A DNA stretch of 64,000 nucleotides from an uncultured bacterium. Its GTDB lineage: Bacteria > Planctomycetota > Phycisphaerae > UBA1845. The notes under the pieces are model-generated. The model searched no databases, was not told the DNA's origin, and saw only the letters and a list, made by a program, of their open reading frames with translations. Below, piece by piece: positions 3,101 to 51,049 of the stretch. The stretch spans positions 12,999 to 76,998 of the forward strand of contig CBDUXT010000007.1 in assembly GCA_965371245.1 (NCBI GenBank), written 5' to 3'. Position 1 is the stretch's first letter. Every line of letters begins with the position of its first letter. The position numbers and the translations under genes are program-made.

Positions 3101-3518
3101 GTGTACCAAACATAACGAAGCGTGGGGTACGGGACGCCTTTCGCTTTACAGTGATGTTATTGTCCCGGGCGGCACGTATAGTGTTCAAATGGTTGCCGAA
3201 AGTTGTGTAAGCCCCGGCGAGGAAGTCTTTTCGGCTGCCCTTTCGGTCACTATGCCGACTACATGGGGCGATATTGTGGGGTTCTTCAATCCAGGCACCG
3301 GGCTATGGGATCCGCCTGAGGGCGACGTCAGCGTTGGTGGTGACATCGTCGCGCTACTGGACAAGTTCAGCAACCTTCCCACGGCGCCGCTCAAGATCCA
3401 GATGGACATCCAGCCGGCCATTCCGGATCAGTTGATATCAATCGTAGAGATCACAAGGACGCTGGATGCTTTCAGCGGCGTGTCTTATCCGTTTGCGGCG
3501 GCCACCGCATGCCCATGA
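120..3518 (+). CDS. Secreted FG-GAP/VCBS-type repeat + right-handed beta-helix surface protein (1132 aa)
   Basis: Long ORF with GGAGG 8 nt upstream of the ATG. Signal-like N-terminus (TLLALWILSWAGTAAFA). Repeated Ca-loop motifs: DLNGDGKDDIVI, DVNDDGCPDLF, DFNHDGCPDIF, DLNNDEWDDIYV, VDDDDYPDVVV. The SWTNAYPDL...VWVAEGTY motif is followed by Gly-rich helix turns (GGGMYI, GGGLHI, GGGVYA). Confidence 0.75.
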   Translation: MNNNRNTRTTRSRRTTAPWEWTRTLLALWILSWAGTAAFAQPVDWTKFADVTQRIKAAPEVLIDLGCSGVTGVDFACEKDIASGDLNGDGKDDIVIVRKSPFYENLAKPNYLFLNEGGFALVDVTEDRVWASATETGFGSYSERDVLIVDVDPDLDEDNKDFNGLDVITVLNAGNTTRIRIYINQGCCSVDCGPDPADSCSANSGTVTKCNTLTATELETQWCGLRYEAQEGTDNRIPSFSPRLTSCAIAAADVNDDGCPDLFAGDYNNTLEDRLLINKPPVGGATGVCRGVFDDKTQDKACGAGNPIATCWVEDSFTTGVQFADFNHDGCPDIFKASRTNSNVWRANKKVGDDCTGDFFESGGGSVAGGYMLYAVDLNNDEWDDIYVAECQEDRFLVNKADEDPAKFRAAVSVTGPTQTWRFGGNVSEALVDDDDYPDVVVASLDVNSVSCSLQLGINRPTVTANPGFAPNVTMAEPLVSVCQGGPDDGDSCTNDMDCSGISICCSSRAWNVHGTFDMGVFNLDTGGKPDLWCGTCDGNRLFISGSNPVLRVKAGATGTDDGSSWTNAYPDLTSALSAAGTQAETTAFVVEVWVAEGTYTPATCSTACTGSSSERDDSFDLPYGVAVYGGFAGTETLLGQRDTEANVTTLSGDLNGDDDTTGTAENSKRVVSVASGSRAELDGFTISDGNATGSGSGAGLGVDAGAGPSVRRCIFRDNVATGSGGGMYIADGADGTLVVSSLFFDNDAVVDGGGLHIVGGNPRILGCTFAENDARGKGGGVYAGPDAPTFRQTIAWDNTDGETPVNELAQIHVPSGGGASIEHNLIKDEAVGGDAPFTSTNRDADPLFVDAAAGDFSIPTTSPALNTAEDASGNKTMRYAPAGVLESVDLAGVVRTSARVDIGAYQFPCPGVFPPLATTFSGATNRYLEVLTLSIPGYATSGAIRVTVDTMPAGMTSLEGSVWWAGTPESICEHSGTRTGCSGGASFRASKLGCTKHNEAWGTGRLSLYSDVIVPGGTYSVQMVAESCVSPGEEVFSAALSVTMPTTWGDIVGFFNPGTGLWDPPEGDVSVGGDIVALLDKFSNLPTAPLKIQMDIQPAIPDQLISIVEITRTLDAFSGVSYPFAAATACP

Positions 3519-3616
3519 CAGAGGCGAGGCCAACCGAAACGGAGGCGACGAACGTGAATCTGGTTTCCAAGAAACGTGCTAACTACGACATTGAGATCTC
3601 AAGAAGGGGGTTTCCC

Positions 3617-5155: not shown

Positions 5156-5164
5156 TAGGGGATC

Positions 5165-5200
5165 GTCCGGAGGGGCGCTTGCGTCCCGGCCCCTCCGGAC
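5165..5200 (+). terminator. GC-rich hairpin 10 nt after the stop codon
   Basis: Perfect 12-bp stem gtccggaggggc (5165-5176) / gcccctccggac (5189-5200) with a 12-nt loop. Followed by ttgg only, so there is no real U-tract. Confidence 0.5.
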
Positions 5201-6061
5201 TTGGCCGCCAGGGTCACCGATTGCACGGCGGTGGCCAAGACCCGACTGGGTCCGCTCTATGCGTAAATCGGATCCGGCAGGCTGTTCGAGGAGCGGCCGC
5301 TCACTCGGGCCGCCGCTCCCCGGAGTACTTTCAGGTCCCGAAGGCGGCATCGACGAGGGACGCCATCCTTCGTTCGATAACGAGGCTTCGCTCGATGACC
5401 TCGCCAAGAAGTTTCTTGAGGTCGCAACGGGAGAGGCGCTTGAGAATCTGTGGGTCGATGTTCGACGACGCGCCTTCGCCATCAGCTTGACTCACTCCAC
5501 CATCTGGGAGCGTGAGACAATAACATTTCAACCGACTTGCGGCCGCTGCCCGCCCAAGCGACCGCTCGGATTCCCTTGGGAAGCGTGCCCATTGCCTGCA
5601 TGTCGTGCCGCGCTTGCCCGAGGGTCGCTTTGAGTGGCTCCCTCTCCCCGCCCTGCCGACGTACGCGCTTTGCCGAAAGCTTTTCGCGCCCCTTGGCCTC
5701 CTCAAACTCGTTCTGGGTTTCCTCTAGGCATGAATCAAACAGTCGCTTCTTCGGTTTCTCGCGGGGTTTGGGGCTTCCGTTGAAGGTACGGTCGGCGGGC
5801 TCGGCATCAGACGAATGCGCGCTGGGAGTTCGAAGTCCGCGGCCGGCTGGCTTTGTGAGTTTGTGATAGCCTGTAGAGTGGGCGCCTGTACCAGCCACAT
5901 GAAACGCCGCTCAGGGCCGCCAGAAGGGGAATCTCCTGAGAGGAGGAGCGTTTTTGTCAAGAAAGCCAGAATCTTGCGACTTTGCGCGCACACTTTGGCG
6001 GTCTCACGCCATCAGTAGATTAGAGGGCCGTACGTCCGGCCACGCTGGGAGCAACAGGCAT

Positions 6062-6472
6062 ATGCGCCGGAACCAAACGGACAGTCTTCCCGAGGAACGG
6101 CAGGCTCTCCCGCCCAGGATCTTGCCACGCATCACTTGGAATGGGGAACCGGCCTCTGCATGCTTGAGCCACGAGCAATGGGAGGCGATTGCCTTTTCGC
6201 TCGACCTATCACACCAGCAAGAGCGAATCGTTCGATCTATCGTTGACGGACTCCACGAGCGCGAAATCGGACAGGAGATGCGCATCTCGACCTACACGGT
6301 TCATAGTCACGTTGTCCGGATGTACCAGAAGATCGGGGTTGCGAGTCGCACTGAACTCATGGTCCGGATCCTGCTTGTAGTGGTTGCACAGGGTTTTCGG
6401 AGCAATCGGGCTCGGTCGAAGGCGGAAAAACACCTGGACTCCGAAGCCCGTGCGGAGCCAAGGGAGGCTTGA
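6062..6472 (+). CDS. LuxR/FixJ-type HTH transcription regulator (no receiver domain)
   Basis: C-terminal LSHQQERIVRSIVDGLHEREIGQEMRISTYTVHSHVVRMYQKIGVASRTELMVRIL matches the LuxR-type HTH pattern. ORF is open from 5954 and the start is placed at an internal ATG (uncertain). Confidence 0.65.
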   Translation: MRRNQTDSLPEERQALPPRILPRITWNGEPASACLSHEQWEAIAFSLDLSHQQERIVRSIVDGLHEREIGQEMRISTYTVHSHVVRMYQKIGVASRTELMVRILLVVVAQGFRSNRARSKAEKHLDSEARAEPREA

Positions 6473-12952: not shown

Positions 12953-14341
12953 TCACGTCATGGACAAATTCAACCCGTATACAGACTCCCTCGACGAGTA
13001 CGCTAGGTTTCGTGCTGCCCTGATGGAGAGCGTGACATCCGTGACCGACTCGCTGCGCGCTATTGGCGATGAGCTTGCCGCGGCCAACGAGACCGGTGAG
13101 GCGTGCTTCTTTGAGCATATGGCCGGGGCCGTGCAGCTGTTCGCCACCCGTTGGGCCGCCGGCCAGCAGACCTTTTCAACCAGGTCCGTGATCAAACGGT
13201 CAAGTGGTTTGTTCGACGCGGACGTCGGCTGGCGTTGACGGCTATCGCCTGCAGCTCGCCGTAGCATCGCCTGGGCACGATCCTCGTCGGCCTGCGACAC
13301 GAAGCGCCAGAGCGACTGGCGAACCACCGTAACAAACAAGCCGCACGGATTACGTGTGGCTACCCGCAGCGCATGCTGCGCCGCCGCGAAGAACCGTAGC
13401 CGCGACGCAGGGCAATCCGCCGCGAGCCCGACTTCCACCGCCCTCCGAAATCGCAGCATCAGCCGATCGGGATCACGCAGCTCTTTTATCGACAATGAAC
13501 GGAGCGCGTTCGACGGAGCGACCTCTGGTTTCGGTTGATTCGCCGTAGGCACCACGGACGGTTCTTGGTTCTTAGGATCCGTAAGGAGTTCTTGTTTCTT
13601 AATAGGGGGTGGCGATTTGGTGCTGTTTTCGCTCCGGCGGGGTGGCGATTCGGTGTCGGGGCCGCGCCACTGCGTGTTCACCCGTACCGCGGACCCGTGT
13701 CGTCGTGTCCACCTGTAGGTTGCCCGATCCTTTTCCATCCAGCCGAGCGGTACGACGGTAGCGGCGGCCCGTTTCACCGTGCGAACATCCAGGCCAAAGA
13801 GCTCCGCGACGAAGCGTATCGAGCAGCGGCCGCGTGAGTTGAACTCGCCGCCGGCCCGCACGTGACAACAACGAATCGTGATACCGAGCATGTATGCGAC
13901 AACGGCAGTCGACCCTCCAGCCGCCAGGTACCGCAACGCCTGGCGCGGCACGGGGATAGTACCGCGACGTGAGATACGGGCCGCCATATCGCGTGCTTGC
14001 CGGCCGAGTTCCACGCATGCCTTCAGTTCCACACGGCCATCTTTCTGCCGCAGGAGTCCGACTCGTTCGAGTTGTGCGAGGGCGGCGCGCACCTGCGACG
14101 CGCGAGCACAGCGGACCAGCAACTGAAGCTCCAGAACGACGGTGTCCCGCCAAAGCCCCTCACCACGCTTGGTTTCCTGGAGGCTCGCAACCTTCCGGCG
14201 CTCAGCGACCTCGTGAAGGCCAAGAAACACGCGAAAGCCAAGCCACGACAGCTCGCGCGACTTGTATGCACACCAGGCGGCGCACAGGTGATCAATGGAC
14301 AATAACCGATAGCCACCCTGCGGTTTTGTGACGTGTGCCAT
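12953..14341 (-). CDS. Hypothetical protein with two winged-helix-like segments (possible plasmid Rep-like protein)
   Basis: Long ORF, start placed at MAHVTKPQGGYRLL. wHTH-like stretches RAALAQLERVGLLRQKDGRVEL and RFVAELFGLDVRTVKRAAATV. Divergent from parA. The last ~95 codons overlap a convergent ORF and look compositionally poor. Function is inference only. Confidence 0.45.
   Translation of the reverse strand: MAHVTKPQGGYRLLSIDHLCAAWCAYKSRELSWLGFRVFLGLHEVAERRKVASLQETKRGEGLWRDTVVLELQLLVRCARASQVRAALAQLERVGLLRQKDGRVELKACVELGRQARDMAARISRRGTIPVPRQALRYLAAGGSTAVVAYMLGITIRCCHVRAGGEFNSRGRCSIRFVAELFGLDVRTVKRAAATVVPLGWMEKDRATYRWTRRHGSAVRVNTQWRGPDTESPPRRSENSTKSPPPIKKQELLTDPKNQEPSVVPTANQPKPEVAPSNALRSLSIKELRDPDRLMLRFRRAVEVGLAADCPASRLRFFAAAQHALRVATRNPCGLFVTVVRQSLWRFVSQADEDRAQAMLRRAAGDSRQRQPTSASNKPLDRLITDLVEKVCWPAAQRVANSCTAPAICSKKHASPVSLAAASSSPIARSESVTDVTLSIRAARNLAYSSRESVYGLNLSMT
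12960..13238 (+). CDS. Possible small helical protein overlapping the 3' end of the minus-strand ORF
   Basis: MDKFNPYTDSLDEYARFRAALMESVTSVTDSLRAIGDELAAANETGEACFFEHMAG reads as a natural helical protein. It shares wobble positions with the antisense ORF, so codon bias cannot discriminate the two. Confidence 0.3.
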   Translation: MDKFNPYTDSLDEYARFRAALMESVTSVTDSLRAIGDELAAANETGEACFFEHMAGAVQLFATRWAAGQQTFSTRSVIKRSSGLFDADVGWR

Positions 14342-38053: not shown

Positions 38054-38943
38054 CGTTCTACTCGCGCCGCAATACGCCACCACCGACGGAACTCCTGTAT
38101 GACGTTCCTGATCTGGTCCGCAGCCGGATCGCCGCCATTCTGGAGCATCACGTTGCTCGTGGGCAAGCCGGTGTCATGTTTATGAATAGCCTCGAAGGTC
38201 TACTAACTCGCACGTATGGCGGTCTCGCGGGCCCCGGCTATGAGGCGGCGCGCCAGAGCGACATCCCCGTGATACAGCACTTCTTCTCCTGCACAGATGA
38301 GCAGGCGTTAGACTTCATCGAAGCCTGTTTCAGCTTGAACATGTCTTGTGGCGGGCAGGTGACTATCGACGAGATCAACGCTGTTCTGCGTGAGGAGGGA
38401 ATCGGTTACGAATTGTCGAAGTACCTCGGGCCCGGATTAACTAGCGGTGAGATTCGGATCGGGCAGCCTATTCCTGAGGACCAGCTACCGCGAGTCATCA
38501 GAGTTGATAGCCAAGCGATCCACGCCGAGGTGGTCGCGCCGGCGCTTGGGCTTCTATCGAACCCCATCTTCGGGGTCGCCAATACCGAAATGCTCAAGGC
38601 ACACGGCGATCATCGCGCCGGGCAAGACGAAGATGCCATTACCGCCTGCTGCTCAGCCTTTGAGAGCGTGCTGAAGACGATCTGTGACCAGAAAGGGTGG
38701 ACCTTCGACGCGGACAAAGACACCTGCGCGACGCTCGTTGATACCTGTTACAAGGAAGGCTTGTTCGCCTCGTTCTATTTGGAGCTTTTCAAGCGTGTCG
38801 GCACGATCCGCAACAAGCTGGGCGACGCGCACGGCCGCGGGCCGACGCCGCTTCACGATGTGGAAGCCGCCCATGCGGAACACATGCTCTACATGGTCTC
38901 GACCCACATTATCCTCTTGTGCAAACTAGCGGGGCTTGAATGA
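38050..38943 (+). CDS. AbiJ-like protein with C-terminal Abi_C/HEPN-type motif (297 aa)
   Basis: TTG start overlaps the hsdM stop (TTGA). The C-terminal helix pair contains R-x6-H, IRNKLGDAHG (38809-38832), as in the Abi_C (HEPN clan) pattern lRN..g.aHG. The N-terminal YDVPDLVRSRIAAIL resembles AbiJ N-domains. Confidence 0.5.
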   Translation: MTFYSRRNTPPPTELLYDVPDLVRSRIAAILEHHVARGQAGVMFMNSLEGLLTRTYGGLAGPGYEAARQSDIPVIQHFFSCTDEQALDFIEACFSLNMSCGGQVTIDEINAVLREEGIGYELSKYLGPGLTSGEIRIGQPIPEDQLPRVIRVDSQAIHAEVVAPALGLLSNPIFGVANTEMLKAHGDHRAGQDEDAITACCSAFESVLKTICDQKGWTFDADKDTCATLVDTCYKEGLFASFYLELFKRVGTIRNKLGDAHGRGPTPLHDVEAAHAEHMLYMVSTHIILLCKLAGLE

Positions 38944-40475
38944 CTTCGGTCTCGCTCAATTCAACGACCCTGAACGCGGACATCGACGAATTGCCAGAGG
39001 GGTGGACGGTTGCCTCGCTCGGCAGAGTGACGCAAGTCGTCTCGAACATCAAACCGGCGAAGGAGCCCAACCGGGTCTTCCGATACGTGGACATTGGGGC
39101 GGTCGACAACGGCACTAACCGGATCGCTGGGACTAGGAACGTCCAAGGCAAAGATGCACCGTCGCGTGCTCGCAGACCAATTCGCCCAAACGATGTCTTG
39201 TTCTCGAATGTTCGTACGTACTTGCGCAACATGGCCTTGGTTACTGAGGTCGATCACGCGGACGTCTGTTCTACCGGGTTTACGGTGTTGCGGTCGAACG
39301 GTGCAGCCCTACCTAGCTTTCTGTTCTGCGCGGCTTTGCGAGATAGCTTTATCGATGCAGTTACGAAGACTCAAACTGGGACCCACTACCCGGCGACTAG
39401 CGAGGCCAAGGTTCGTGCTGCGTCAATCCCACTGCCGCCGCTTTCCGAGCAGGTGAGGATCGTCGAGGCGATCGAACGCTTGACGGCTCGCGTTGATTCA
39501 GCTCGTCAGCGACTTGGCAACGTCCCCAAGATCCTGAAACGCTTCCGCGAAACTATCCTCGCCGCAGCCTGTACCGGACGACTCACCGAAGCCTGGAGAG
39601 AGGGGCACGCTGGCACTCGAAGTGCCGTCGAGCAGCTCGCGGAGTTTGAGTCCGCACATGCTCGACTGCGTAGCTCCAGCGCCGGAACCCGCGCTGCAAA
39701 GGCGGAGGCCACACTCGAGCTCGATGGACTACCTGATCTGCCATCAACATGGTGCTACCGAAGCGCGGACTCGATCGTCGATCCAGCTACGGTTATCTCA
39801 TACGGCATCGTGCTTCCCGGCCCCGAAGTGGAACGTGGCATTCCGTACGTCCGACAGCAGGATGTCATCGATGGCACCGTTCTCGTCGACCAACTCCGTC
39901 GCACCACACCTGAGATCGCGGCGAAACATCAGCGGTCAACACTTGTGACCGGGGATGTTCTCCTGTGCATCATCCGTCACCTTCGAGTTGCGATCGTTCC
40001 ACCTGGGATCGATGGAGCGAATCTCACGCAGGGTACCGTTCGACTCCGCCCTGCTCGGGTTGCCTCCGGACCGTATCTCGCCATGTACCTCGGCGGTATC
40101 CACGCCCAGAACTGGATGCGACAGCGCCACTTTGGCATGTCCATGCCTCGCATCAATGTGAGGGATGCACGCGCGCTCCCGGTCGCGGTTCCACCTGTCC
40201 AAGAGCAAGCTGAAATCGTCCAGCGCGTTCAGTCGTTGATGAAACTCGCGAACGCCATCGAGCGTCGCGTTGTCGCCGCAACTGCACGGGCGGACAAAAT
40301 CACCCAGGCAGTGCTGGCCAAAGCCTTTCGCGGCGAACTCGTTCCCACCGAAGCCGAGCTTGCCCGCGCCGAAGGCCGCCGCTACGAATCCGCGGTCGAC
40401 CTGCTTGCTCGTATCAATTCGCGTGTTGAATCTGTTCCAAAGGTTCGGCGGCGCAAACAAAGGACAAGTCGTTGA
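38940..40475 (+). CDS. hsdS: Type I restriction-modification specificity subunit HsdS (two target-recognition domains)
   Basis: LPEGWTVASLGRV...NDVLFSNVRTYL...STGFTVLR...IPLPPLSEQVRIVEAIERL, then a second half LPDLPSTW...GDVLLCIIR...VAVPPVQEQAEIVQRVQSLM...LAKAFRGELVP. ATGA overlap with the upstream gene. Confidence 0.85.
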   Translation: MTSVSLNSTTLNADIDELPEGWTVASLGRVTQVVSNIKPAKEPNRVFRYVDIGAVDNGTNRIAGTRNVQGKDAPSRARRPIRPNDVLFSNVRTYLRNMALVTEVDHADVCSTGFTVLRSNGAALPSFLFCAALRDSFIDAVTKTQTGTHYPATSEAKVRAASIPLPPLSEQVRIVEAIERLTARVDSARQRLGNVPKILKRFRETILAAACTGRLTEAWREGHAGTRSAVEQLAEFESAHARLRSSSAGTRAAKAEATLELDGLPDLPSTWCYRSADSIVDPATVISYGIVLPGPEVERGIPYVRQQDVIDGTVLVDQLRRTTPEIAAKHQRSTLVTGDVLLCIIRHLRVAIVPPGIDGANLTQGTVRLRPARVASGPYLAMYLGGIHAQNWMRQRHFGMSMPRINVRDARALPVAVPPVQEQAEIVQRVQSLMKLANAIERRVVAATARADKITQAVLAKAFRGELVPTEAELARAEGRRYESAVDLLARINSRVESVPKVRRRKQRTSR

Positions 40476-43141
40476 GTGACGTTGAAGCCAATCAAAGCCA
40501 AGAAGCATCTCCTGATGTGGAGGGCTCGCTAGACGTTGTCCAGTGGAGTCGGCAACTGCCGATTTGGATGCACGATGCGCTCCGCCGACTCTACCAGCAT
40601 GGAATATTGACCTCCAAAGATGATGACGAACTCCTTTCGATCTGCGCAACCGCCAACGGCGTAGAGCTTGAATCTGTGCCCAAAGTAGACCCAATTCCAC
40701 TCGATCCGGCGCACGTACCTGACGATAGACAGGTCGAGAATCCGGTCGCGCTGGTCGAACTTCGTGATTTGCTCCATGTGAACGCCGTCGCACCTGATCA
40801 GAAACTCGCATTTGCTCAGTCGGGTCTGACGATTATCTACGGTGATAACGGTTCAGGTAAATCAGGTTATGTACGTTTACTAAAGCGTGCGTGCCGGGCC
40901 CGGCACCGCGAAGGCTCGCTACTGCCGAACGTATACGCCGACCCGCCAACCAGCCCGGCCAGCGCTAAGCTCAAGTACTCCATCAATCAACAGAACCATA
41001 ACCATGATTGGGTCGATGGTAGCGACTCAACACCCTCGGAACTCTCGCGCATAAGCGTGTTTGATTCACGCTGCGCTGAAACCCACGTCACAGGCAAGAA
41101 TGAGTTGGCCTACACTCCGCGCGCGCTAGCAGTTCTGTCGGAGCTGGCGAAAGCCGCTCAAAGGATGAAGGCCAAGCTGCAGCAATTGCAGAGGCAACTA
41201 GAAGCAGAGCGACCACCCTGGATGACCACGATGCCGAAGCCGTTTCGTGATACGACGGCCGTCGGCAAACTTATTGGCGGGTTATCCGCCGATACCACAA
41301 TCGAATCTGTCGACGGGCTCGCGCGATTAACAAGCGCCGAGGAACTCCGCCTCAATCAACTCAAAACGGACTTGGGCGAGCTGCCTTTCCGCACGGTGCA
41401 AAGGCTGCGTGGCACGGTCCAGCGATTGGACTCTGCGATCAATCTCGTTGAAACAGCAGTTCGGGCTCTTTCGGATGAGAGTGTCTCGACTTTCCGTAAG
41501 CAGCTTGAGGAACTTACGGTGAAGCGCGACGCCGCACGCATTGCGGCAGACGTGAGAGCAGGCGACTACCCACTGTTAGGTGTCGGATCTGGGAGTTGGA
41601 AATCACTCTGGGAGGCCGCCCGCAAGTATTCTGAATCTGACGCGTATGCTGATCAGCCTTTTCCTGTCACGGTGGAGAATGCTAGATGTGTGCTTTGCCA
41701 ACAAGAGCTGGATTCGACCGCTAGCGACCGGCTGACTCGCTTTGAGGCATTCGTTAAGAATGAGACGCAAGTACAATTCGAGGCCGCGACGCGCTCAGTT
41801 GATGCTGGCCGAAGCACGTTTCGCGACCTCCAGTTGATTCCAGGTGAGATTCGCGCTGCGCGCGACGTTGTCCGGACAGAACTTGATCAGCGGAACCTTG
41901 CGACAGTATTACGACGCTATCTGATGCGAGCGCTCCGAATCCTATCGACTATCCTAAAAACCGAAGCGGCCGCTGATCTCGATACACTGCGTCAGCTTGG
42001 CGTCTCACCGCTTGATGAATTGCGTTTGGTACGCGATAACCTCAACACTCGAATCGCCGAGCTATCATCCGCGACAAACTCCGACTCACAGCGCCAGCTT
42101 GAAACCGAACGCGATGAACTGGAGGACCGTCTGTGGCTCAGGTCGTCGCGTCAGTTGGTTCTTCGTGAAATGCGCCGGCTTGTCAAGTTGTCGATGATCA
42201 AGTCGGCACTTGACGATACGAGCACGAACCGCGTCACACGGCACGCGACGCGGCTTGCAGCCGAAGTGGTTACCGCGAAGCTCCGGGATTGCTTCGCGCG
42301 CGAAGTCGAAAAGCTCGGAATCGGAAGTCTGCGTGCTGAAATGTCGCAACTCGGAGGAATGACGGGAGATTCGATATTCGGAATCACATTGATACGCAGC
42401 CGAAGCACAAGCGTGGCCGACGTGTTCAGTGAAGGAGAATTCCGATGCATCGCCCTTGCCGCGTTCCTGGCCGAACTTGCTACCGCCGACGATCAATCTG
42501 GGATCGTATTTGACGATCCGGTTTCTTCACTCGATCACAATCACCGTGAAGCCGTCGCGAAGCGATTGGCTGAGGAGGCGTCAAATCGGCAAGTAATCGT
42601 TTTTACGCACGACATCGTTTTCTTGTGCGAATTGGATGAGGCTGCGCGAGAGCAAGGCTTCGATCCAAAGTACCAATGCATCACACGAGGGGACGAGGCT
42701 GCGGGCTTCGCAACCTCGGAAATACCTCATAACAAACAACCGCCTCAAAGTGCTCTTTCAGGGATCGAGACACACCTCGATAACACCAAGCGACAGTACG
42801 AAACGGGACAGCAGGCCGAGTGGACAAGGACTGCCAAGTCGATCGCCGGTCAGATTCGTGACTGCTGGGAACTCGCCGCCGAACATGCGCTCAAGCCGGT
42901 GATGTCTCGGTTTTCGCACAAGACGGCACCATCCAGATTCAACGCTGTGTCCGTTTTGGACGCTTCGGATTCCACGGAGATGAAAGAAGGATATGCGTGC
43001 TGCTCCGGATGGGCGCACACCTCTGGCCCTGCGGCCCAGGCCGCTCCCGCTACGCCCGCAGAGCTTCAGGCGGAAATCAACCGCCTCAAGCACTGGCTGG
43101 AGGCTATCGAACTAAAGCAAGCAGGGCTGCGATCAACTTAG
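40472..43141 (+). CDS. Rad50/ABC-type ATPase with coiled-coil CxxC hook (AAA_13 / RloC-like, possible anticodon nuclease), 889 aa
   Basis: Walker A GDNGSGKSG (40841-64). ~500-aa helical insert with CVLC (41687-98) near its midpoint. Signature-like FSEGEFRCIALAAFL, Walker B/D-loop GIVFDDPVSSLD, H-loop VIVFTHD. The C-terminal domain has IRDCWE (R-x3-E, 42857-71) and a downstream GWAHTSG. TTGA overlap with hsdS. Confidence 0.55.
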   Translation: MSDVEANQSQEASPDVEGSLDVVQWSRQLPIWMHDALRRLYQHGILTSKDDDELLSICATANGVELESVPKVDPIPLDPAHVPDDRQVENPVALVELRDLLHVNAVAPDQKLAFAQSGLTIIYGDNGSGKSGYVRLLKRACRARHREGSLLPNVYADPPTSPASAKLKYSINQQNHNHDWVDGSDSTPSELSRISVFDSRCAETHVTGKNELAYTPRALAVLSELAKAAQRMKAKLQQLQRQLEAERPPWMTTMPKPFRDTTAVGKLIGGLSADTTIESVDGLARLTSAEELRLNQLKTDLGELPFRTVQRLRGTVQRLDSAINLVETAVRALSDESVSTFRKQLEELTVKRDAARIAADVRAGDYPLLGVGSGSWKSLWEAARKYSESDAYADQPFPVTVENARCVLCQQELDSTASDRLTRFEAFVKNETQVQFEAATRSVDAGRSTFRDLQLIPGEIRAARDVVRTELDQRNLATVLRRYLMRALRILSTILKTEAAADLDTLRQLGVSPLDELRLVRDNLNTRIAELSSATNSDSQRQLETERDELEDRLWLRSSRQLVLREMRRLVKLSMIKSALDDTSTNRVTRHATRLAAEVVTAKLRDCFAREVEKLGIGSLRAEMSQLGGMTGDSIFGITLIRSRSTSVADVFSEGEFRCIALAAFLAELATADDQSGIVFDDPVSSLDHNHREAVAKRLAEEASNRQVIVFTHDIVFLCELDEAAREQGFDPKYQCITRGDEAAGFATSEIPHNKQPPQSALSGIETHLDNTKRQYETGQQAEWTRTAKSIAGQIRDCWELAAEHALKPVMSRFSHKTAPSRFNAVSVLDASDSTEMKEGYACCSGWAHTSGPAAQAAPATPAELQAEINRLKHWLEAIELKQAGLRST

Positions 43142-43161: not shown

Positions 43162-43947
43162 CTACTCAAAGACTCGAACAATCCGGCGTTTCCAGGGAAC
43201 GTTTCCGACGGGAACCAGTTCATTACCTGCAACACGGCGCGCGCGGTTGACGGCCCGCCACACATTGAGAAGCTGGACCCGAATCGGTGCATACGGCTGA
43301 AATTCTATGGCCGCAAAATCAGCTCCGACCACTGCTGCCGAGCGGTAACACGCTCGGTCAAGAAACCACTCCTTCAGCCGCAAATACTCAGCCCGCTCGA
43401 TTCGCACACAAGCGTGTCCGTTGCGGTAGCTGAGGCCGTAACCTGCGAACTTTATCGGAACGCGACGAGCGTCGCGTATTCGGCGAGTTTCTTCGTCAAA
43501 GTAACGGTGGCCCCCGTGCGTGGCCATCAGCAGGAAACACCGCTCGTTCCGGATGTACTGTATGTTGGCCAAGCCGGCGCGCTTGCGACGGGCGCGCTCC
43601 CATCGTGACACGTCGATGCCGTATTTCTTGATGAGCTTGGCGTCCACCACGGCCGGATCCTTCCTCTCTGGAATCCGTCCGGCCACGTAGAACCAATAGC
43701 CATGCCGTAGGTATTGTACGGCAACTTGCTGCACGAATCCTTCGACGGACGTAGCCACGCATCGGTACTCAACTCGCTTCTTTCCCACGCTCTTCTCTCG
43801 TAATTCTGGCGGCCGAACCGGACCCCATACCGGGACGCCGTCGGGAATAGATTGCACCGTATGCACACGGCTCCTCCCCGGCCACCAATTGCACACCGAA
43901 CAACTTGGGATTGTTTGTCGGCACAATCCCGAAAGCCATCGAACCAT
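43162..43947 (-). CDS. Hypothetical protein (conserved-looking, function unknown)
   Basis: ORF is open to 44016 and the start is placed at the internal MVRWLSG to avoid overlap with the upstream gene. The protein-like core is VQYLRHGYWFYVAGRIPERKDPAVVDAKLIKKYGIDVSRWERARRKRAGLANIQYIRNERCFLLMATHG. No family was recognised. Confidence 0.4.
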   Translation of the reverse strand: MVRWLSGLCRQTIPSCSVCNWWPGRSRVHTVQSIPDGVPVWGPVRPPELREKSVGKKRVEYRCVATSVEGFVQQVAVQYLRHGYWFYVAGRIPERKDPAVVDAKLIKKYGIDVSRWERARRKRAGLANIQYIRNERCFLLMATHGGHRYFDEETRRIRDARRVPIKFAGYGLSYRNGHACVRIERAEYLRLKEWFLDRACYRSAAVVGADFAAIEFQPYAPIRVQLLNVWRAVNRARRVAGNELVPVGNVPWKRRIVRVFE

Positions 43948-43978
43948 GTTGGTGCACGACCAACCTTCAACAATTGAC

Positions 43979-44188
43979 TCAGCCGCAGAAGCCAAGCAGC
44001 GCGCGCAGGTCATCATCCGTCGGCGGGCGACCGATGCCTTCGGTGTAGAGCGCCACGAGGCGTTCCCTCACCTTCCAGGGCAGATCGTCCGGTTCAACGA
44101 GGACGAGTCCCGTAGCCTGCAACTGCTCGACGTAGTCTGCGGCCGGGTCACCAATTACGGCGCCGTTTGCCGTTTTCCACCAACCCAT
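43979..44188 (-). CDS. Small acidic hypothetical protein (69 aa)
   Basis: GGAGGA 6 nt upstream of ATG 44188. MGWWKTANGAVIGDPAADYVEQLQATGLVLVEPDDLPWKVRERLVALYTEGIGRPPTDDDLRALLGFCG. Confidence 0.55.
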   Translation of the reverse strand: MGWWKTANGAVIGDPAADYVEQLQATGLVLVEPDDLPWKVRERLVALYTEGIGRPPTDDDLRALLGFCG

Positions 44189-45459
44189 GTTTATCCTCCG
44201 TCGTACACTCGAAACCTCCCTTCGATTCACGATTACCAGCGTGCTTCGCGCAGCGAACCGGGCGCGGCCACACTTGTTTCCAAGTTGACCGCGCCCAGTA
44301 ATAAGAAGCAGCGCGAAGCACCACTCGATCAACCGCCATGCACCACGTACACGTCGGCTATCAACGTCAGATCATCGCCACAGGCCGCTCGCGCTCCCGC
44401 GCGAGTCGCATGTGACCACGTAACCACCTCGTCAAAGGACCGATGCGGACCGATTCCGCACCGGCACACCGTACAAATGGAATACCCGTCAGCCCTTTCG
44501 TTGTTGTCACGCATCCGGCACCACCCGGACGCACAAACGGCCCGCCACTGCCTTGCAGCGGAATCCGCTCCCGATTCATCGGGACTTCTACTTGGGCCAC
44601 ACTCCCACTCTGCAGCGTTTGAATCACGCGGCTAACCAAGCCGCGCACCGGGCACCAGGCCGGCGGCTGCAGAGCTTCCCGGATTATCAGCAGTTGTTCA
44701 CCAATCAGTCACGTCGCTAGGCCGTGTTACCGGCCGGGTCTACGTCGTATGTCCGCGCTTCCGCAACGGCATAGTTTCCCCGCCATCGGCGGGATTTCAG
44801 CGGGCAGAAACAAGAAGCTCCCGCTTACCCGTCAACGTAGATTCTTCGCGGTTCGGCACCGTCTCTGATTGATGTGACCAGCAAGCCCTTACGGGCCTTT
44901 CATGGTTGAGCTTTTCGCGGTCCGCTGTTTGGGCGGATCCCCGGACGAGTCAGGTCCGGTCGCGCGTGTCGCCACGCTGCGAGCTCCCCACGCTGGCCAA
45001 GGTTGAACAAGCCTCCGAGACTTTCACCCGATTTGCGCACTGCAACGGTGAGCTTCGGCTCGAACCCCCTGGATAGGATTTGTCGTACACGACAAGACGC
45101 ACCTACTTCAACTGCTGCGACCTCGGCGATCCGCGTAACACCACGGCTCGTCGAGGCGCGTCTCCGTCGCCCCGATTCAAAATGTCAATTCGCTATCGGA
45201 TAGAACTGCAGGATTACTTCCTTTTTCGGAGATTAGTCTGCAGAGCCTCCGTCGAGCCGGACAAGCGCGTCTCCACGCATCCGGCTCTACGGGTAGCATC
45301 GTTGCGACTGGTGAGGTCGCACTCTTAGCCCGGCTGGTGAAGCCAGGTTTACCGAGTGATGCCGCCCATTTGTACGTTGTCACGGTTACGTGTTGACGTT
45401 CGTGACGAACACGAGGTCTTCGCCTCGTTCAAGGAACCTAGCGTACTCGCCAGCCAAAG

Positions 45460-46167
45460 TCACGCCGCAGATGCCAACTTTATGGCAGCTTCGCTTTGCA
45501 TGCGCGTTTGAATCGAAGCGGGAATCCAACCGTAACCGTTGCGAATCGAGACTTCGGTAATCGTAAACTGCCGGGGATCCTCAAACTCGAAGTACGGCGC
45601 GTGATACGACAGAAGGACGAGGTCGGCGACCGGCGCGGTGAACGTATGGACGAGTCCACGCGTGAGAACGACCACGTCGCCGGCCTGAACGACAACAGAG
45701 CGTAGCTCATTGCAGCTAGCGCCTTCGGGCATGTAGTGGAACAGACCGAACCCGGCGGCGATGGCGATGAACCGGTCGGACAACTCGTGGACATGGAGCG
45801 GCAGGTCCACGGTGCCTTCCGAGAAACAGAGATACACCAGGGCGTTGTCGTCATCGGCGTCGTCGCGCCATACGCCGCCCGCAATCCCGGCGTTGCCCTC
45901 GAAACCGGGCTCGACCCGAATCGGGTGACGTTGGAGCAGTTGATCAGCGAGCGCGGAGGGCGACGGCGTCGTCGAGCCTAGCGCGACCCGACCCTTGACA
46001 AACACCGGTGCCACTCCAGCGGCATCAGCACGGATGCGACCTAGCGCCTGGCGGGCCACCGACATGATGGCCTGTAGAGGGCTGGCGGACTCCCCAGCCC
46101 TTACGTCGTACTGCACGTTGCGATTCCCTGCAACACGATCCTCAAATACCGCCCGCACCGCGTTCAT
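45460..46167 (-). CDS. Cupin-fold protein
   Basis: The C-terminal half, DLPLHVHELSDRFIAIAAGFGLFHY...VVVQAGDVVVLTRGLVHTF, fits the two cupin motifs (HxH..E ... G....P....H). ORF is open to 46353 and the start is placed at MNAVRAVF. Confidence 0.5.
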   Translation of the reverse strand: MNAVRAVFEDRVAGNRNVQYDVRAGESASPLQAIMSVARQALGRIRADAAGVAPVFVKGRVALGSTTPSPSALADQLLQRHPIRVEPGFEGNAGIAGGVWRDDADDDNALVYLCFSEGTVDLPLHVHELSDRFIAIAAGFGLFHYMPEGASCNELRSVVVQAGDVVVLTRGLVHTFTAPVADLVLLSYHAPYFEFEDPRQFTITEVSIRNGYGWIPASIQTRMQSEAAIKLASAA

Positions 46168-46314
46168 CGGGCACCACCTTCCCGCCTCTCGGCAAAGCTC
46201 CTCGCATCGGCGAGACAAGACCACCGCGCATCGCCCCGACCGCGCGGGGCATCCAATGTTCGGTACTTGTTTGGTACGCAGCAAAACCGCAAAGTCAAGG
46301 TACGAAATCGAAAA

Positions 46315-46953
46315 ATGCCTCCTGACGCAGATATTTTCGTCCCGACCACCCACTTGACCAGGGAAGCCCGGATTCAGGTGCTGCTGGAGGAATACCGCGC
46401 GCTGTACGGCCTTCTGACCTTCCGGTTGGGGGCTATGGACCGTCGTCTGCCCGTCGCCGGGGGCGCACTTGGCGCCCTGCTCGGCGCATCAACGGCCATG
46501 CCAGCGGACACAAAGCTCGCGTTCTTGCTCGGGCTGCCTGTGGCGCTCCTCTGGCTACTGCTTTCCACGGTCCAGCATGCCCGATCGAAGGAGGACCACC
46601 TTCGCAGAATTGACGAGATTGAGCGGCTCGTGAACCGGCTTGCGGGTGAAGAGTTGCTGGTTTTTCAGTCCCGGCACCCGAACAAGCGGCGGACGACGGC
46701 CGGCCGGTCAGGCTTCGGAACGGTTCTGTCCGTCCTCTCGACCTGCTGGATGATGTTGGCCGCCTGCTGTTTTCTGGTCTCGACGCCGCCCCGACTGCTA
46801 GAGCTGGGCGGGATCCTCGCCTACTACCTCTACAACGCTGGCTTGGCCGGAATGATGCTCCACGCGGTCCTCCGGCTTCGACGGTACCGCTACCGCCGCC
46901 CCCCTGCGGACGGCCCCCAACTTTTTGAGGCGTATTCGCAAGATTGGACTTGA
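46315..46953 (+). CDS. Integral membrane protein (about 4 TM helices), unknown function
   Basis: Hydrophobic helices: LPVAGGALGALLGA, LAFLLGLPVALLWLLLS, FGTVLSVLSTCWMMLAACCFLV, LGGILAYYLYNAGLAGMMLHAVL. Divergent from the cupin gene. Confidence 0.45.
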   Translation: MPPDADIFVPTTHLTREARIQVLLEEYRALYGLLTFRLGAMDRRLPVAGGALGALLGASTAMPADTKLAFLLGLPVALLWLLLSTVQHARSKEDHLRRIDEIERLVNRLAGEELLVFQSRHPNKRRTTAGRSGFGTVLSVLSTCWMMLAACCFLVSTPPRLLELGGILAYYLYNAGLAGMMLHAVLRLRRYRYRRPPADGPQLFEAYSQDWT

Positions 46954-46980
46954 CCCACCCCGATTCGTTCGTTAGCACGT

Positions 46981-47403
46981 ATGCGTACAAGACTGAAGGA
47001 GACCCTGGTGGCCCGAGCGAGCCGATCCAATCAACAAGAACCCATCGGCGACGTGCTCCGGGCGCGCCGCATCGAGGAGCTGCACAAAGGCCTCCGCGAG
47101 ATGGCCAGGATTCTCGAGATTGCGCCGGCTCATCTGACTGACCTGGAGAAGGGTCGTCGCACCCCGTCAGAAGACCTGCTCTTACGCATTGCCCAGGCGT
47201 ACGGCATCGCTGAACCCGAGCTCCGCGCCGGCTGGAGCCGAGCTGAAGGCATCGTAAGCGAAGTCGCGACCCAAGACCCTCTTACCGCGGAAAAGGTCCC
47301 GGAGTTCCTGCGTACCGCGCGCAAGCTATCACAAGATCAGTGGGACAAACTCATCAGCGAAGCCCGTCGTATGTCGGCCAAGAAGGGGCGTCGCAAGGAT
47401 TGA
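46981..47403 (+). CDS. XRE-family helix-turn-helix regulator
   Basis: IGDVLRARRIEELHKGLREMARILEIAPAHLTDLEKGRRTPSEDLLLRIAQAYGI is the canonical Cro/C1 HTH pattern. Confidence 0.75.
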   Translation: MRTRLKETLVARASRSNQQEPIGDVLRARRIEELHKGLREMARILEIAPAHLTDLEKGRRTPSEDLLLRIAQAYGIAEPELRAGWSRAEGIVSEVATQDPLTAEKVPEFLRTARKLSQDQWDKLISEARRMSAKKGRRKD

Positions 47404-47406
47404 GGT

Positions 47407-48177
47407 TTGATGCCAGCAGCGCAGCCAGCCAAGTTGCTTGAACCACGCCGTGGCGGTCGGCAGACCGACCAGCGCGCCTGGTCCACGCTTGAGCGTTGTC
47501 GCACGAGGCTGGGTCTTGAGGGACTCCCGTTGCCGATACCGGTCGAAGAGTGGATCGAAGGCCCCCTTGGTATTCAATTCGGGTTCTCCGATCTCAGCCA
47601 CCTCGGTGACGGTGTTCTCGGCGCTGCGTTTGTCGATAGCCCCCAAATCCTGATCGACGAGAAGGCGCTGGAGCACGAAGGGCGGTGCCGTTTCACGTGT
47701 GCCCACGAACTCGGTCACCTGGTCATGCACAAACGCATCCGAGCGCGTTTCCATGGCACAACAGCCGGTGTCACGTTCTCAACGAACAAGTACGAGCGCC
47801 AGGCCGATCGTTTCGCCGCGGCGTTCCTGATGCCATTGCCACAGCTTGAGCGGGCGATCGTGCGCTCTTTCGACGATCGCCGCCTGGAACGGGTGCCCTG
47901 CACGCACGAGTTGAAGCAGGTTACTGCGGAGTCTGAGTGGCTTTGGCGTTACCGGGTTCTTCCGGCCATCACACGCACCTTCAATGTGTCGCTATCGGCG
48001 GCAGTATTCCGATGCACCGAAATCCAGTTACGGATCACGAACCCGCAGCCGTTGATGCCGAGGCGGTTGGTTCAAAGGCTGTTGGAACCGGCCGAACCCA
48101 ACGATACCGTCAGCGCAGTCCAAGTCATCGACGGTCGTCCCCAGTACCGCGAAACCCTGACGGGCGAGGCGTCATGA
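47407..48177 (+). CDS. ImmA/IrrE-family zinc metallopeptidase (DUF955-like)
   Basis: HEXXH in RFTCAHELGHLVMH, with downstream E...ADRFAAAFLMP typical of ImmA/IrrE. Starts 4 nt after the XRE gene. Confidence 0.75.
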   Translation: MMPAAQPAKLLEPRRGGRQTDQRAWSTLERCRTRLGLEGLPLPIPVEEWIEGPLGIQFGFSDLSHLGDGVLGAAFVDSPQILIDEKALEHEGRCRFTCAHELGHLVMHKRIRARFHGTTAGVTFSTNKYERQADRFAAAFLMPLPQLERAIVRSFDDRRLERVPCTHELKQVTAESEWLWRYRVLPAITRTFNVSLSAAVFRCTEIQLRITNPQPLMPRRLVQRLLEPAEPNDTVSAVQVIDGRPQYRETLTGEAS

Positions 48178-49309: not shown

Positions 49310-50620
49310 ATGGCGAGAAAGGAGGAACGATCTCACCGTTGGACGAAGTCAGAACGCGTCGGCGAGGTTACGCTCTTTCTTACACCGCGTAGTCCATACT
49401 GGCAAATGTACTGGGAGATCGAGGTGCCAGCGCCCAACGGCCAAGCTGGTCGGGCGGCATCACCTCGTCAGGCGGTTTCAAAGAGCACTCGCGAAACAGA
49501 TCTCGCGTTCGCCCGGCTCGTTGCCGGCCGCAGGAGTGAGGAGCTCTTTCGGGGGCGGCACTATCCGGAGGAGCGGCAGGCGCCGCAGCAAACGCGGATC
49601 GGCCCGGTGTTCGATGCATTCATCGCGTACATCGAAACGTTGGATCGCAGCCACGACTACGTTTCGAAGCTCAAGGGAAGACTGAAGTGCCTGATAGGCT
49701 GGATGGAGAAGCGACGGTTGGTCTTTGTGCAAGACATTAGCGCGAGCTTGTTGCAGAGGTTCCAGACGTATCTGCGGACCGAACGAGGTGTCACGACGTC
49801 GACAGCGAATCATTATCTCGACGCCGTGCACAATTTCTGCGGCTACGCCATCTTCAAGCGCAAGCTCATGGCCGGCCCGAACCCGGCGGCCACAGGGCGC
49901 CAAGCTGAATTGGATCGGCTCCCGCGCCGCACGCTTCCGCCACCGACCATTTATCCGGATCAGGTCAACGCCGTGATCGAGGCGGCCGCAAACCACTTTG
50001 ATACGCAGATTGTGAACCTCATCGTGTTCATCTGCGAAGGTGGCTTTCGATTTCAGGAGCTCCAGTTTCTTCAGGTCGGCGACATCGACCTCAAGGAGCG
50101 CGAGATCATCCTGGACATCAAGCGGCCTGAACCCGGCCGGGTTCGCCCGGAGCTGCGCAGGCGATGCCTGACGGCCGAGGGACTATGGGTTCCCAAGAGT
50201 CGTGCCGCCCGCCGTCCGGTGCATATCACCGACCGGCTGGCACGAACGATCGGGTCCATGGGACTCGGGCAGGCAACTGATTGGGTGTTTCTCAATCAGG
50301 CGGGAAACCAGATCGCCGGCAACAAGACCCTTGACCACCTCAAGCGATACGCGCTTGAAGCGGACGTGTTGGTGGAACCGCATCCGAAGACGGGTGAGCC
50401 TTGGTCTTTGCTTCGATGGCACTGGCTTAGGCACTACCATCGAACTCGTGCCCACGTCAGCAAGATCCGACGCGAGGTGTCAAAGCTCGCGATGGGTCAT
50501 GCGGCCGACCCCGTCCATGACCACTACCGTGGCTTGGACCGGTTTGCGTTTCACGCGGAGTACGCCAAGTTCGAGAGTGGGCTCGATGACGCGCTTCTGA
50601 CCACGAAAAAGGCGCCTTAA
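49310..50620 (+). CDS. int: Tyrosine recombinase / phage-type integrase adjacent to ssrA
   Basis: GGAGGTG upstream. Catalytic motifs GGFRFQELQFLQVGDI, WVPKSRAARRPVHI, WHWLRHYHRTRA, LAMGHAADPVHDHY. The stop lies 77 nt from the tmRNA 3' end. Confidence 0.9.
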   Translation: MARKEERSHRWTKSERVGEVTLFLTPRSPYWQMYWEIEVPAPNGQAGRAASPRQAVSKSTRETDLAFARLVAGRRSEELFRGRHYPEERQAPQQTRIGPVFDAFIAYIETLDRSHDYVSKLKGRLKCLIGWMEKRRLVFVQDISASLLQRFQTYLRTERGVTTSTANHYLDAVHNFCGYAIFKRKLMAGPNPAATGRQAELDRLPRRTLPPPTIYPDQVNAVIEAAANHFDTQIVNLIVFICEGGFRFQELQFLQVGDIDLKEREIILDIKRPEPGRVRPELRRRCLTAEGLWVPKSRAARRPVHITDRLARTIGSMGLGQATDWVFLNQAGNQIAGNKTLDHLKRYALEADVLVEPHPKTGEPWSLLRWHWLRHYHRTRAHVSKIRREVSKLAMGHAADPVHDHYRGLDRFAFHAEYAKFESGLDDALLTTKKAP

Positions 50621-50650: not shown

Positions 50651-50697
50651 ACCTTTTTTCGTGCTTGTAACCCTTTGTCTGACAACGAGTTAGTAAC

Positions 50698-51049
50698 TGG
50701 AGGCGGGGGGAATCGAACCCCCGTCCCGCGACGGCTCCGGTGGTGCCTCTACGTGCGTAGTCGGTCGTTTGAATCTCGGAAGCGCCGGCGCCGGCCGACA
50801 GGCTCTGGTGCTTCCCAGTCCGACTGTGAGTTCGCCCACGCGCGGTCAGGCGTCACGCGCGGGCTAGCCCGCTTATCGGCGTCTTACGGATTAGCGAGCG
50901 TCATCCGATCGACGGGCTACCTATCTCTAGGCGGCCATGGCAAATGAAGAGTTGCCATTTCTAGTTGCGCCAGGTGTTTAACGAGGCCTCCTGACAACCT
51001 CGGCACGCCACACTACCTTTGACTCGCCCGGTCGAATCCAATCGCCCCC
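50698..51049 (-). ncRNA. ssrA: tmRNA (transfer-messenger RNA, one-piece)
   Basis: On the minus strand the 5' end is GGGGGCGATTGGATTCGACCGGG and the 3' end is GGACGGGGGTTCGATTCCCCCCGCCTCCA (T-arm + acceptor). The acceptor stem GGGGGCG/CGCCUCC has the G3:U pair. The internal tag ORF GCA ACT AGA AAT GGC AAC TCT TCA TTT GCC ATG GCC GCC TAG gives (A)TRNGNSSFAMAA*. Confidence 0.92.

Follow-up and report, generated by a model that had tools for sequence, protein, structure and literature searches.

A gene-free stretch of a Planctomycetota mobile island very probably encodes a circularly permuted group II ribozyme with an acpG homolog downstream

The question raised by a 64,000-nucleotide stretch of contig CBDUXT010000007.1 (positions 12,999 to 76,998; assembly GCA_965371245.1), from an uncultured bacterium of the Phycisphaerae (Planctomycetota; UBA1845) and hereafter called the window, is what its minus strand encodes in a gene-free gap at approximately 44189-45459. 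The gap is bounded by the ATG of a small minus-strand open reading frame (ORF) at 44188 and by the stop codon of a cupin-like minus-strand ORF at 45460; the ORFs that overlap it are 50 to 93 amino acids long, lie on both strands, and gave no match in a Pfam scan. A preliminary description, made by eye, had singled out 44649-45459 as devoid of ORFs and rich in hairpins, and had proposed a large structured non-coding RNA or, alternatively, an origin of replication or transfer. The lack of credible genes there was borne out (the ORFs are 50 to 82 amino acids long, and the three that were named, of 66, 82 and 68 amino acids, have no Pfam match), as was the large structured RNA, on the minus strand and with base-pair covariation in relatives; the boundaries were drawn too narrowly, as conservation of the RNA begins near 45440 and reaches 44470 or beyond, and conserved hairpins occur as far as about 44260. 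Two ORFs that had been accepted as genes, at 44367-44648 and 43889-44635, overlie domain 3 of this RNA and have no family match. The segment 45440-44470 of the minus strand is very probably a circularly permuted (CP) group II ribozyme of approximately 0.9-1.0 kb, with a homolog of the gene acpG located 3' of it on the same strand.

The Rfam group II intron model RF00029, which comprises domains 5 and 6 (D5 and D6), matches 45289-45195 on the minus strand with 45.8 bits, above its gathering score of 40; a comparison with Rfam had been proposed in the preliminary description. In a normal group II intron, D5 and D6 form the 3' end and are preceded by about 600 nucleotides of D1-D3 and by an ORF for a reverse transcriptase (RT). 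Upstream of D5 in the window there are only 170 nucleotides of non-coding DNA before the cupin-like ORF, so D1-D4 and an RT gene cannot precede D5-D6; downstream of D6 there is about 1 kb of non-coding DNA. Pfam gave only a weak Cupin_2 match for the upstream ORF and no RT or maturase domain, and there is no RT gene between that ORF and D5. D1, D2, the joiner between domains 2 and 3 (J2/3) and D3 were assigned downstream of D6 from covariation and from a comparison of motifs with the published Stockholm alignment, parsed for Thermus aquaticus. The order on the minus strand is thus P1/P2, D5, D6, 3' splice site, 22-nucleotide linker, 5' splice site GGGCG, D1, D2, J2/3 and D3. A long terminal helix between the 5' and 3' ends and a basal helix occupy the place of D4, which puts the permutation point in D4, the site of the ORF in a normal intron. 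It was because the RNA lies on the opposite strand, with D5-D6 before D1-D3, that no group II intron had been recognized by eye.

Relatives were collected by scanning species-representative genomes, metagenomes and viral contigs with a D5 pattern, which gave 79 related loci, 28 in species-representative genomes and 51 in metagenomes, mostly from Planctomycetota, and no match in viral contigs. These loci bear on the reading that D5-D6 is a dead remnant of a canonical mobile intron, stripped of D1-D4 and RT and lying by chance beside unrelated structured sequence. Bacterial genomes often contain truncated group II introns, one related locus (L023) truly consists of D5 only, and a permissive-E Rfam scan of 43900-45800 matched D5-D6 alone, with no group-II-D1D4 family. 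However, about 900 nucleotides after D6 are conserved in 57 full-length loci, where they show the features of group II D1-D3 and covary heavily; the 5' splice-site motif GGGCGA follows D6 in 70 of the 74 loci with enough sequence, at a linker length of 13-75 nucleotides (80 loci); exon-binding site 1 (EBS1) covaries with the end of the linker; and a helix joins sequence before D5 to sequence after D3. A remnant is therefore very unlikely.

The minus strand of 44649-45459 folds with a minimum free energy of -352 kcal/mol (z = -5.9 against dinucleotide shuffles, n = 20), and the plus strand with z = -3.7; no shuffle out of 20 was as good on either strand. The structure was tested on a 25-sequence alignment, for which RNAalifold gave a consensus of 240 pairs in 37 helices. 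In this consensus 93.0% of cells are paired, compared with 35-40% when the partners are slid, and 167 of the 240 pairs have compensatory changes, which is the covariation that the preliminary description had named as a check on its RNA. The covariation score is 0.545, compared with about 0.09 in the control, and was reached by none of 500 shuffles. Seven of the eight stems that had been noted by eye are real helices with compensatory changes in relatives: gagccgga(18 nt)tccggctc is D5, cgagg/cctcg is P1, gcgac/gtcgc is P2b, agcggg/cccgct is the EBS1 hairpin, and ccgcc/ggcgg, ggac/gtcc and ttgtcg/cgacaa are hairpins of D1. The eighth, gagc ttcg gctc (45050-45061), is not conserved, and its 5' arm has a different partner in the consensus structure. 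The minus strand is the RNA strand, as indicated by invariant G-U pairs (for example, in 25 of 25 sequences in D5) and by the stronger z-score of its fold.

The same data bear on two readings in which the gap does not encode RNA. As a replication or transfer origin (oriV or oriT) of the island, with hairpins acting as DNA structures or protein-binding sites, it would be gene-free and rich in inverted repeats, as it is; it lies in an integrase island, and its plus strand also folds better than the shuffles. This alternative, which the preliminary description had offered, is exceedingly improbable, since the relatives conserve base pairs rather than sequence and do so strand-specifically (an invariant G-U pair would be A-C on the other strand), and an origin would account for neither the D5-D6 match nor the splice-site motifs. 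The scanned neighbours (the cupin-like protein, a helix-turn-helix (HTH) protein, an M78 peptidase and AcpG) include neither a relaxase nor a Rep, and no iterons or nick-site repeats were seen, although no dedicated iteron or repeat search was run. A frameshifted or decayed protein gene, the case that had been named as refuting the RNA, could be suspected from the several short ORFs that overlap the gap on both strands; but these have no family match, neither tblastn nor blastn showed similarity to plasmid genes (a blastn comparison of the gap itself with plasmids gave no match), and substitutions in the relatives track base pairing and not codon position, so that there is hardly any likelihood of such a gene.

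The elements of a group II active site are invariant across the 25 divergent sequences: the AGC triad and bulge of D5, the branch-point A of D6, GGGCG (extending to GGGCGA) and J2/3. D5 in the window reads GAGCCGGAU-GCGUG-GAGA-CGCGC-UU-GUCCGGCUC, with the UU bulge, and the splice sites are arranged as ..CCGAU, 22 nucleotides and GGGCGAC. In D6, the sequence UUCUAUCCGAU is almost invariant in the family, helix 7 has eight compensatory pairs, and the branch-point A is located in UUCUAUCC. D1 spans GGGCGAC-CGGA to UCCG-GGAAG, J2/3 was assigned as GGGAGUGU by mapping of domains against the Thermus aquaticus alignment, and the basal helix is formed by GACGGGU after D3 and ACCCGU (45289-45294) just before D5.

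Splice-site recognition by pairing of EBS1, in the loop of a D1 hairpin, with intron-binding site 1 (IBS1), the last six nucleotides of the linker, is supported by 126 paired cells of 150. Three of the positions vary; at these, 44 of 51 cells are paired, compared with 27.0 +/- 3.3 after shuffling, and none of 10,000 shuffles reached 44. The EBS1 loop, GAGCUUCU-UGUUUC, has its first seven bases in common with the Thermus EBS1 loop GAGCUCC. Another EBS1 candidate, the D2 junction strand GUGAUUCAAACGC (44618-44630, minus strand), is perfectly complementary to the linker end in the window (GAUUC) and in the relatives L008 (GGUUC) and L006 (GCUUC); it fails in L005, L011, L012, L013, L021 and L025 and lies in the wrong domain, and the D1 hairpin loop was preferred. 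The match of the D2 strand to IBS1 could be due to chance or could be an alternative pairing that competes with EBS1.

Two kissing-loop contacts, P2a with D3 and P2b with D2, have 93.5% of cells paired and 26 compensatory cells, compared with 17-66% in slid controls. In the pseudoknot between the P2b loop and a D2 hairpin loop, four of five pairs have compensatory changes and 90% of cells are paired; in the second contact, the P2a loop pairs with the D3 loop. The terminal helix (11-17 bp) is formed in every lineage by complementary leader and tail sequences despite their differing sequence, for example CGCCAUUCAGACCGGG and CCCGGUCUGAAUGGCG in L006, L011 and L021, and the position of P1 is kept in the closest relatives.

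The CP group II class was described from Thermus, Comamonas testosteroni (Cte 1), Ralstonia and Geobacillus (Roth, Weinberg, Breaker et al. 2021), and structures were obtained by cryo-EM by Ling et al.; the published set comprises 290 RNAs. In these RNAs, D5-D6 precede D1-D3, and the two parts are separated by a short linker (15-86 nucleotides) that has the 3' splice site NU on one side and the experimentally mapped 5' splice site GGGCG on the other. They contain no internal ORF, the bulge of D5 is of the form 'UN', and a loop-loop pseudoknot of P2 with D2 is considered characteristic of them (Roth et al. 2021). The gene acpG is frequently near them in variable orientation and at variable distance (Roth et al. 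2021). Every defining feature of the class that lends itself to a test in silico is present in the window RNA: the order D5-D6-linker-D1-D2-D3 without an internal ORF that has a family match; a 3' splice site ..AU, a 5' splice site GGGCG and a linker of 22 nucleotides; the AGC triad of D5 with a U-first two-nucleotide bulge five base pairs away, and a bulged A in D6; EBS1 in a D1 hairpin with a loop that starts GAGCUYC; the P2-D2 pseudoknot; an AGUA/GAA motif at the base of D3, matching Thermus CCAGUACGAAG...GAAAGCCC; a size of about 0.9-1.1 kb; and linkage to acpG and to plasmids or integrase islands. J2/3 of the window sits where the Thermus RNA has GGGGAGA in the parsed published alignment.

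The window RNA and its relatives differ from the published RNAs in several respects. Their D5 signature, GAGCCGGAUGC...GCUUGUCCGGCUC, is not in the published CP alignment; their hosts are mainly Planctomycetota, a phylum that is not in the published list of taxa, and no link between Planctomycetota and CP group II ribozymes was found in the literature searched; they add the second kissing loop (P2a-D3) and the terminal helix of 11-17 bp; and acpG is almost always directly downstream on the same strand, whereas the published cases vary. D5-D6 of the window passes RF00029, near canonical introns, whereas the published RNA of Thermus plasmid pTT8 has no RF00029 match even at E <= 1. An Rfam 15 scan of pTT8 4200-6164 (minus strand), which contains this published active ribozyme, gave neither RF00029 nor a CP group II family; standard annotation therefore misses the class or labels only orphan D5-D6 pieces as 'group II intron'. 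Since the testable features of the class are present, the homology of D1-D3 is weak, and the D5 signature and hosts are unpublished, the window locus and its relatives are filed here as a putative new, previously unlisted clade of the known class.

Several points weigh against this assignment. The similarity to published CP RNAs is weak outside D5-D6: the matches found by nhmmer are limited to the D1/D2 junction and the D6/linker/GGGCGAC block (E 1e-4). A covariance model built on the five-way junction of D1 has its best match inside D1 of the published Polaromonas CP RNA at only 14.3 bits (E ~0.017), and misses the Thermus RNA, where its top match is spurious. Scans with consensus promoters and terminators gave no convincing sites for the CP RNA, so that transcript ends and co-transcription with acpG are only inferred. 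Transcription and cleavage at the locus are predictions, and the 6-bp EBS1-IBS1 helix of the window copy has one U-U mismatch (5 of 6 positions pair). This mismatch could mean that the RNA is a CP group II RNA by descent, of which this copy or the whole clade no longer splices and serves only as a structured scaffold or as the 5' leader of acpG, which lies downstream on the same strand; the near-identical L006, L011 and L021 differ at one IBS1 position, and splicing of the clade is itself a prediction. Loss of splicing is nevertheless unlikely, in view of the invariance of the catalytic elements across divergent sequences and of the covariation still present between EBS1 and IBS1, which is expected only with selection on splice-site recognition; moreover, all five class members that were tested were active in vitro (Roth et al. 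2021).

If the window RNA is an active CP group II ribozyme, its splicing can be predicted from that of its homologs in Comamonas and Thermus, which have been studied experimentally. The transcript would fold into a normal group II active site, composed of the AGC triad and UU bulge of D5, J2/3 and the D1 scaffold. The 2'-OH of the bulged A at 45201 in D6 would attack the 5' splice site, which is located downstream, before the G at 45172, and the freed 3'-OH of the linker would then attack the upstream 3' splice site, after the U at 45195. The predicted products are a circular RNA of 22 nucleotides, AGCGAAUUGACAUUUUGAAUCG, with the junction UUGAAUCG|AGCGAAUU (...GAAUCG|AGCGAA...), and a T-shaped branched RNA, formed by a 2'-5' bond that would link the P1-D6 piece to D1-D3 at the 5' end of the latter. 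In the case of read-through, the branched RNA would also carry the downstream acpG message.

Canonical bacterial group II introns (RF00029/group-II-D1D4) share with the window RNA D5, the branch-point A of D6, EBS1-IBS1, J2/3 and D3, and presumably the two-step transesterification. The window RNA differs from them in its rotated domains, its internal and reversed splice sites, its 5' motif (GGGCG rather than GUGYG), its lack of an intron-encoded RT and of an evident route of retromobility, and its predicted products, which are a circle and a branched RNA instead of ligated exons and a lariat. Permuted group II introns were reportedly engineered by Jarrell in 1993; these and the permuted intron-exon (PIE) designs resemble the window RNA in that back-splicing between a 3' splice site and a downstream 5' splice site yields a circular RNA. 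They are laboratory constructs with chosen exons, whereas the window RNA is natural and conserved, with a tiny non-coding linker and dedicated stabilizing pseudoknots. Few large ribozyme classes occur naturally; CP group II RNAs are one of these and offer a template for the engineering of circular RNA. The coordinates of the parts are given in Table 1.

Table 1. Parts of the predicted CP group II ribozyme and flanking genes, in descending order of window coordinates (5' to 3' on the minus strand)
Feature	Coordinates	Strand	Details
IrrE/M78 peptidase	47407-48177		upstream block
XRE-type HTH	46981-47403		upstream block
Membrane-like ORF	46267-46953		upstream block; 228 aa
Cupin-like ORF	45460-46167	-	upstream block
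Possible -10 box	45435-45440	-	TAGGTT, ~7 nt upstream of P1 hairpin; TAnnnT-like boxes co-aligned in most relatives; not called by consensus promoter scan; proposed transcription start near 45430
5' leader hairpins	45379-45427	-	P1 45412-45427, P1b 45379-45406; read by eye, outside tested consensus structure
Terminal helix, 5' strand	45366-45376	-	CGUACAAAUGG; partner 44470-44480
P2 three-way element	45295-45366	-	P2a 45329-45347, P2b 45304-45320; loops UCACCA; consensus helices 1-4 with compensatory changes
Domain 5	45254-45287	-	AGC catalytic triad, GAGA tetraloop, 2-nt UU bulge; distal stem (helix 6) covaries in 25 sequences
Domain 6	45195-45250	-	bulged branch-point A 45201; predicted 3' splice site after U 45195 (..CUAUCCGAU|); within RF00029 alignment
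Linker ('exons')	45173-45194	-	AGCGAAUUGACAUUUUGAAUCG, 22 nt; last 6 nt = IBS1; between 3' splice site AU and 5' splice site GGGCG
5' splice-site motif	45166-45172	-	GGGCGAC; cleavage expected before first G, 45172
Domain 1	44680-45166	-	five-way junction with GAAAAGCUCAA (44884-44916); consensus helices 10-28 with many compensatory pairs
EBS1 hairpin in D1	44800-44824	-	EBS1 UGUUUC at 44807-44812
Domain 2	44608-44674	-	CUCUGCAG...CUGCAGAG; two hairpins, helices 29-32; loop CUGGU of first hairpin kisses P2b loop
J2/3	44599-44607	-	purine-rich joiner UGGGAGUGU; GGGAGUG invariant in family
Domain 3	44484-44598	-	GGCCCAAGUAGAAG ... ACGAAAGGGCU; helices 5 and 33-37
Terminal helix, 3' strand	44470-44480	-	CCAUUUGUACG
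Conserved 3' extension	44260-44464	-	hairpins 44440-44464, 44377-44419, 44260-44296
Small ORF	43979-44188	-	69 aa; ribosome-binding site GGAGGA; between RNA and acpG
acpG homolog	43162-43776	-	204 aa; GTG start 43776

Downstream of the terminal helix, 25 of the 33 pairs that RNAalifold predicted in the 3' extension from 11 relatives have compensatory changes; this extension may be part of the ribozyme (a D4 analog) or the leader of the downstream acpG mRNA. Its covarying hairpins include GGGCGCGGUCAACUUGGAAACAAGUGUGGCCGCGCCC, with a conserved loop, and another conserved part of it, ..CUGACG-(A/U)UGA-CAGGC-GACGUG.., may represent a tiny ORF or an RNA motif. The small ORF between the RNA and acpG has homologs only in L005 (72% identity) and L021 (44%) and no Pfam or PADLOC match, and is not a consistent component of the module.

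The hosts of the related loci in genomes are mostly Phycisphaerae and other Planctomycetota, along with Competibacteraceae, Thermomicrobiales, Bryobacterales, Hydrogenedentes and Oceanicaulis, so that the window locus and its approximately 80 relatives extend the CP group II class to Planctomycetota and a few other phyla and provide a deep covarying alignment that includes EBS1-IBS1. The ribozyme module rides on mobile DNA, on an integrase island at a transfer-messenger RNA (tmRNA) gene in the window and on plasmids elsewhere. In Planctomycetes bacterium K2D, plasmid pK2D_1 carries a homolog of the downstream ORF, and ahead of this homolog lie the same D5-D6 (RF00029, 49.4 bits) and non-coding DNA of about 1.2 kb. 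The counterpart of the window RNA spans 3500-4620 of this plasmid locus (L001), with a predicted circular product of 41 nucleotides; K2D is a named strain rather than a metagenome-assembled genome and is possibly culturable. Contig CAZYGM010000045.1 has both a full-length CP ribozyme (L025) and, about 5 kb away, the D5-only fragment (L023, 5697-5728), which diverges right after D5 and adjoins a gene pair encoding HTH and M78 proteins, suggesting recombination or decay of a second copy.

The gene downstream of the ribozyme had been read as a 284-amino-acid ORF from an ATG at 44016; this was rejected, as homologs place the start at the GTG at 43776, for a protein of 204 amino acids. AcpG was reported to lack any detectable homolog (Roth et al. 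2021). By profile comparison, the protein of 43776-43162 is a homolog of AcpG (TTHC007): it scored 33.4 bits against a hidden Markov model of ten published AcpG sequences, and hhalign of 13 family members against nine published AcpG sequences gave a probability of 98.1% (E 1.1e-13, 192 aligned columns). It aligns with published AcpG over nearly its full length and, at about 200 amino acids, is like the proteobacterial members, at an identity too low for BLAST. Profile methods were needed because BLASTP of the window protein against Thermus AcpG was not significant (E 0.27) and tblastn of Thermus AcpG found Thermus plasmids only. This branch of the AcpG family alone comprises 2,440 clusters at 90% identity in a collection of 5.8 billion proteins, all of them unnamed or annotated as 'hypothetical', with no Pfam, PADLOC or PDB sequence match.

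Among the 50 loci in which the downstream flank is 2 kb or longer, 44 have an acpG homolog in that flank, on the strand of the RNA and 1.1-1.5 kb from the start of D5; the spacing between the RNA and acpG is 0.3-0.6 kb. The coupling of RNA and acpG is tighter than in the published CP set, and this tight same-strand coupling argues for a functional unit of RNA and protein. AcpG is most likely an RNA-binding partner of the ribozyme. Among Thermus plasmids, acpG is found on some that are very small (4.7-16 kb), such as NZ_AP025601.1 (4,719 bp); acpG and a CP RNA of about 1.1 kb, if present there as on pTT8, would fill a large share of such a replicon, which hints at a role linked to plasmid maintenance or replication.

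The AlphaFold2 model of the window AcpG (predicted local distance difference test (pLDDT) 94.7, predicted template modelling (pTM) score 0.87) had no strong match in a Foldseek search of the PDB, in which the four best matches were RT/maturase chains of group II intron ribonucleoproteins (8T2S, 6ME0, 8H2H and 8FLI; E 2.5e-3 to 3.5e-2, probability up to 0.97, template modelling (TM) score 0.33-0.46), followed by norovirus RNA-dependent RNA polymerases (RdRps) and, lower, by a retron RT. Nearly all of the top matches in a viral library (BFVD) were RdRps. An hhalign comparison with five annotated ltrA proteins was not significant (probability 3%); in its best local alignment, RT motifs 6-7 and the thumb/X domain were matched by AcpG residues 93-204. 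AcpG had no match to Pfam RVT, and polymerase activity is unlikely because no acidic residue is conserved across the AcpG alignments. The model thus seems to resemble group II intron RTs and viral RdRps weakly but consistently, which is an unproven lead. It is possible, though rather doubtful, that AcpG is a catalytically dead descendant of a group II intron-encoded RT/maturase that has moved outside the RNA. If so, CP group II ribozymes would be a domesticated ribozyme-maturase pair and not protein-free oddities; the Planctomycetota clade would make the pair as one transcript, in which the acpG message would acquire a 2'-5' branched 5' end after back-splicing; and this branched end could be a self-made cap governing the stability or translation of acpG mRNA.

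In the surroundings of the ribozyme, a tmRNA gene (50695-51049, minus strand; RF00023, 148 bits) is adjoined at its 3' end by a tyrosine integrase gene (49310-50620, plus strand), from which position it follows that the island is probably integrated at ssrA. A search of the rest of the window for an att repeat (a second copy of the tmRNA 3' end) was negative, and the far border of the island is therefore undefined. The block upstream of the ribozyme, 45460-48177, is conserved in five other loci (L006, L011, L021, L014 and L018); its HTH/M78 pair resembles mobile-element regulators of the ImmR/ImmA type, and the cupin-like ORF gave no tblastn match to plasmids. On the other side, the plus strand of 38940-43141 encodes an 889-amino-acid AAA_13/SMC-like ATPase that matches the PADLOC candidate defence family PDC-S06 (E 5e-184), directly preceded by an ORF (38940-40475) that by eye looks like the specificity (S) subunit of a type I restriction-modification system; on account of this match and this ORF, a defence cluster is considered to lie convergent to acpG. 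Elsewhere in the window, at 13145-13233 (plus strand), there is an odd tRNA-like gene, to which ARAGORN assigned no identity but a four-base anticodon (tcaa).

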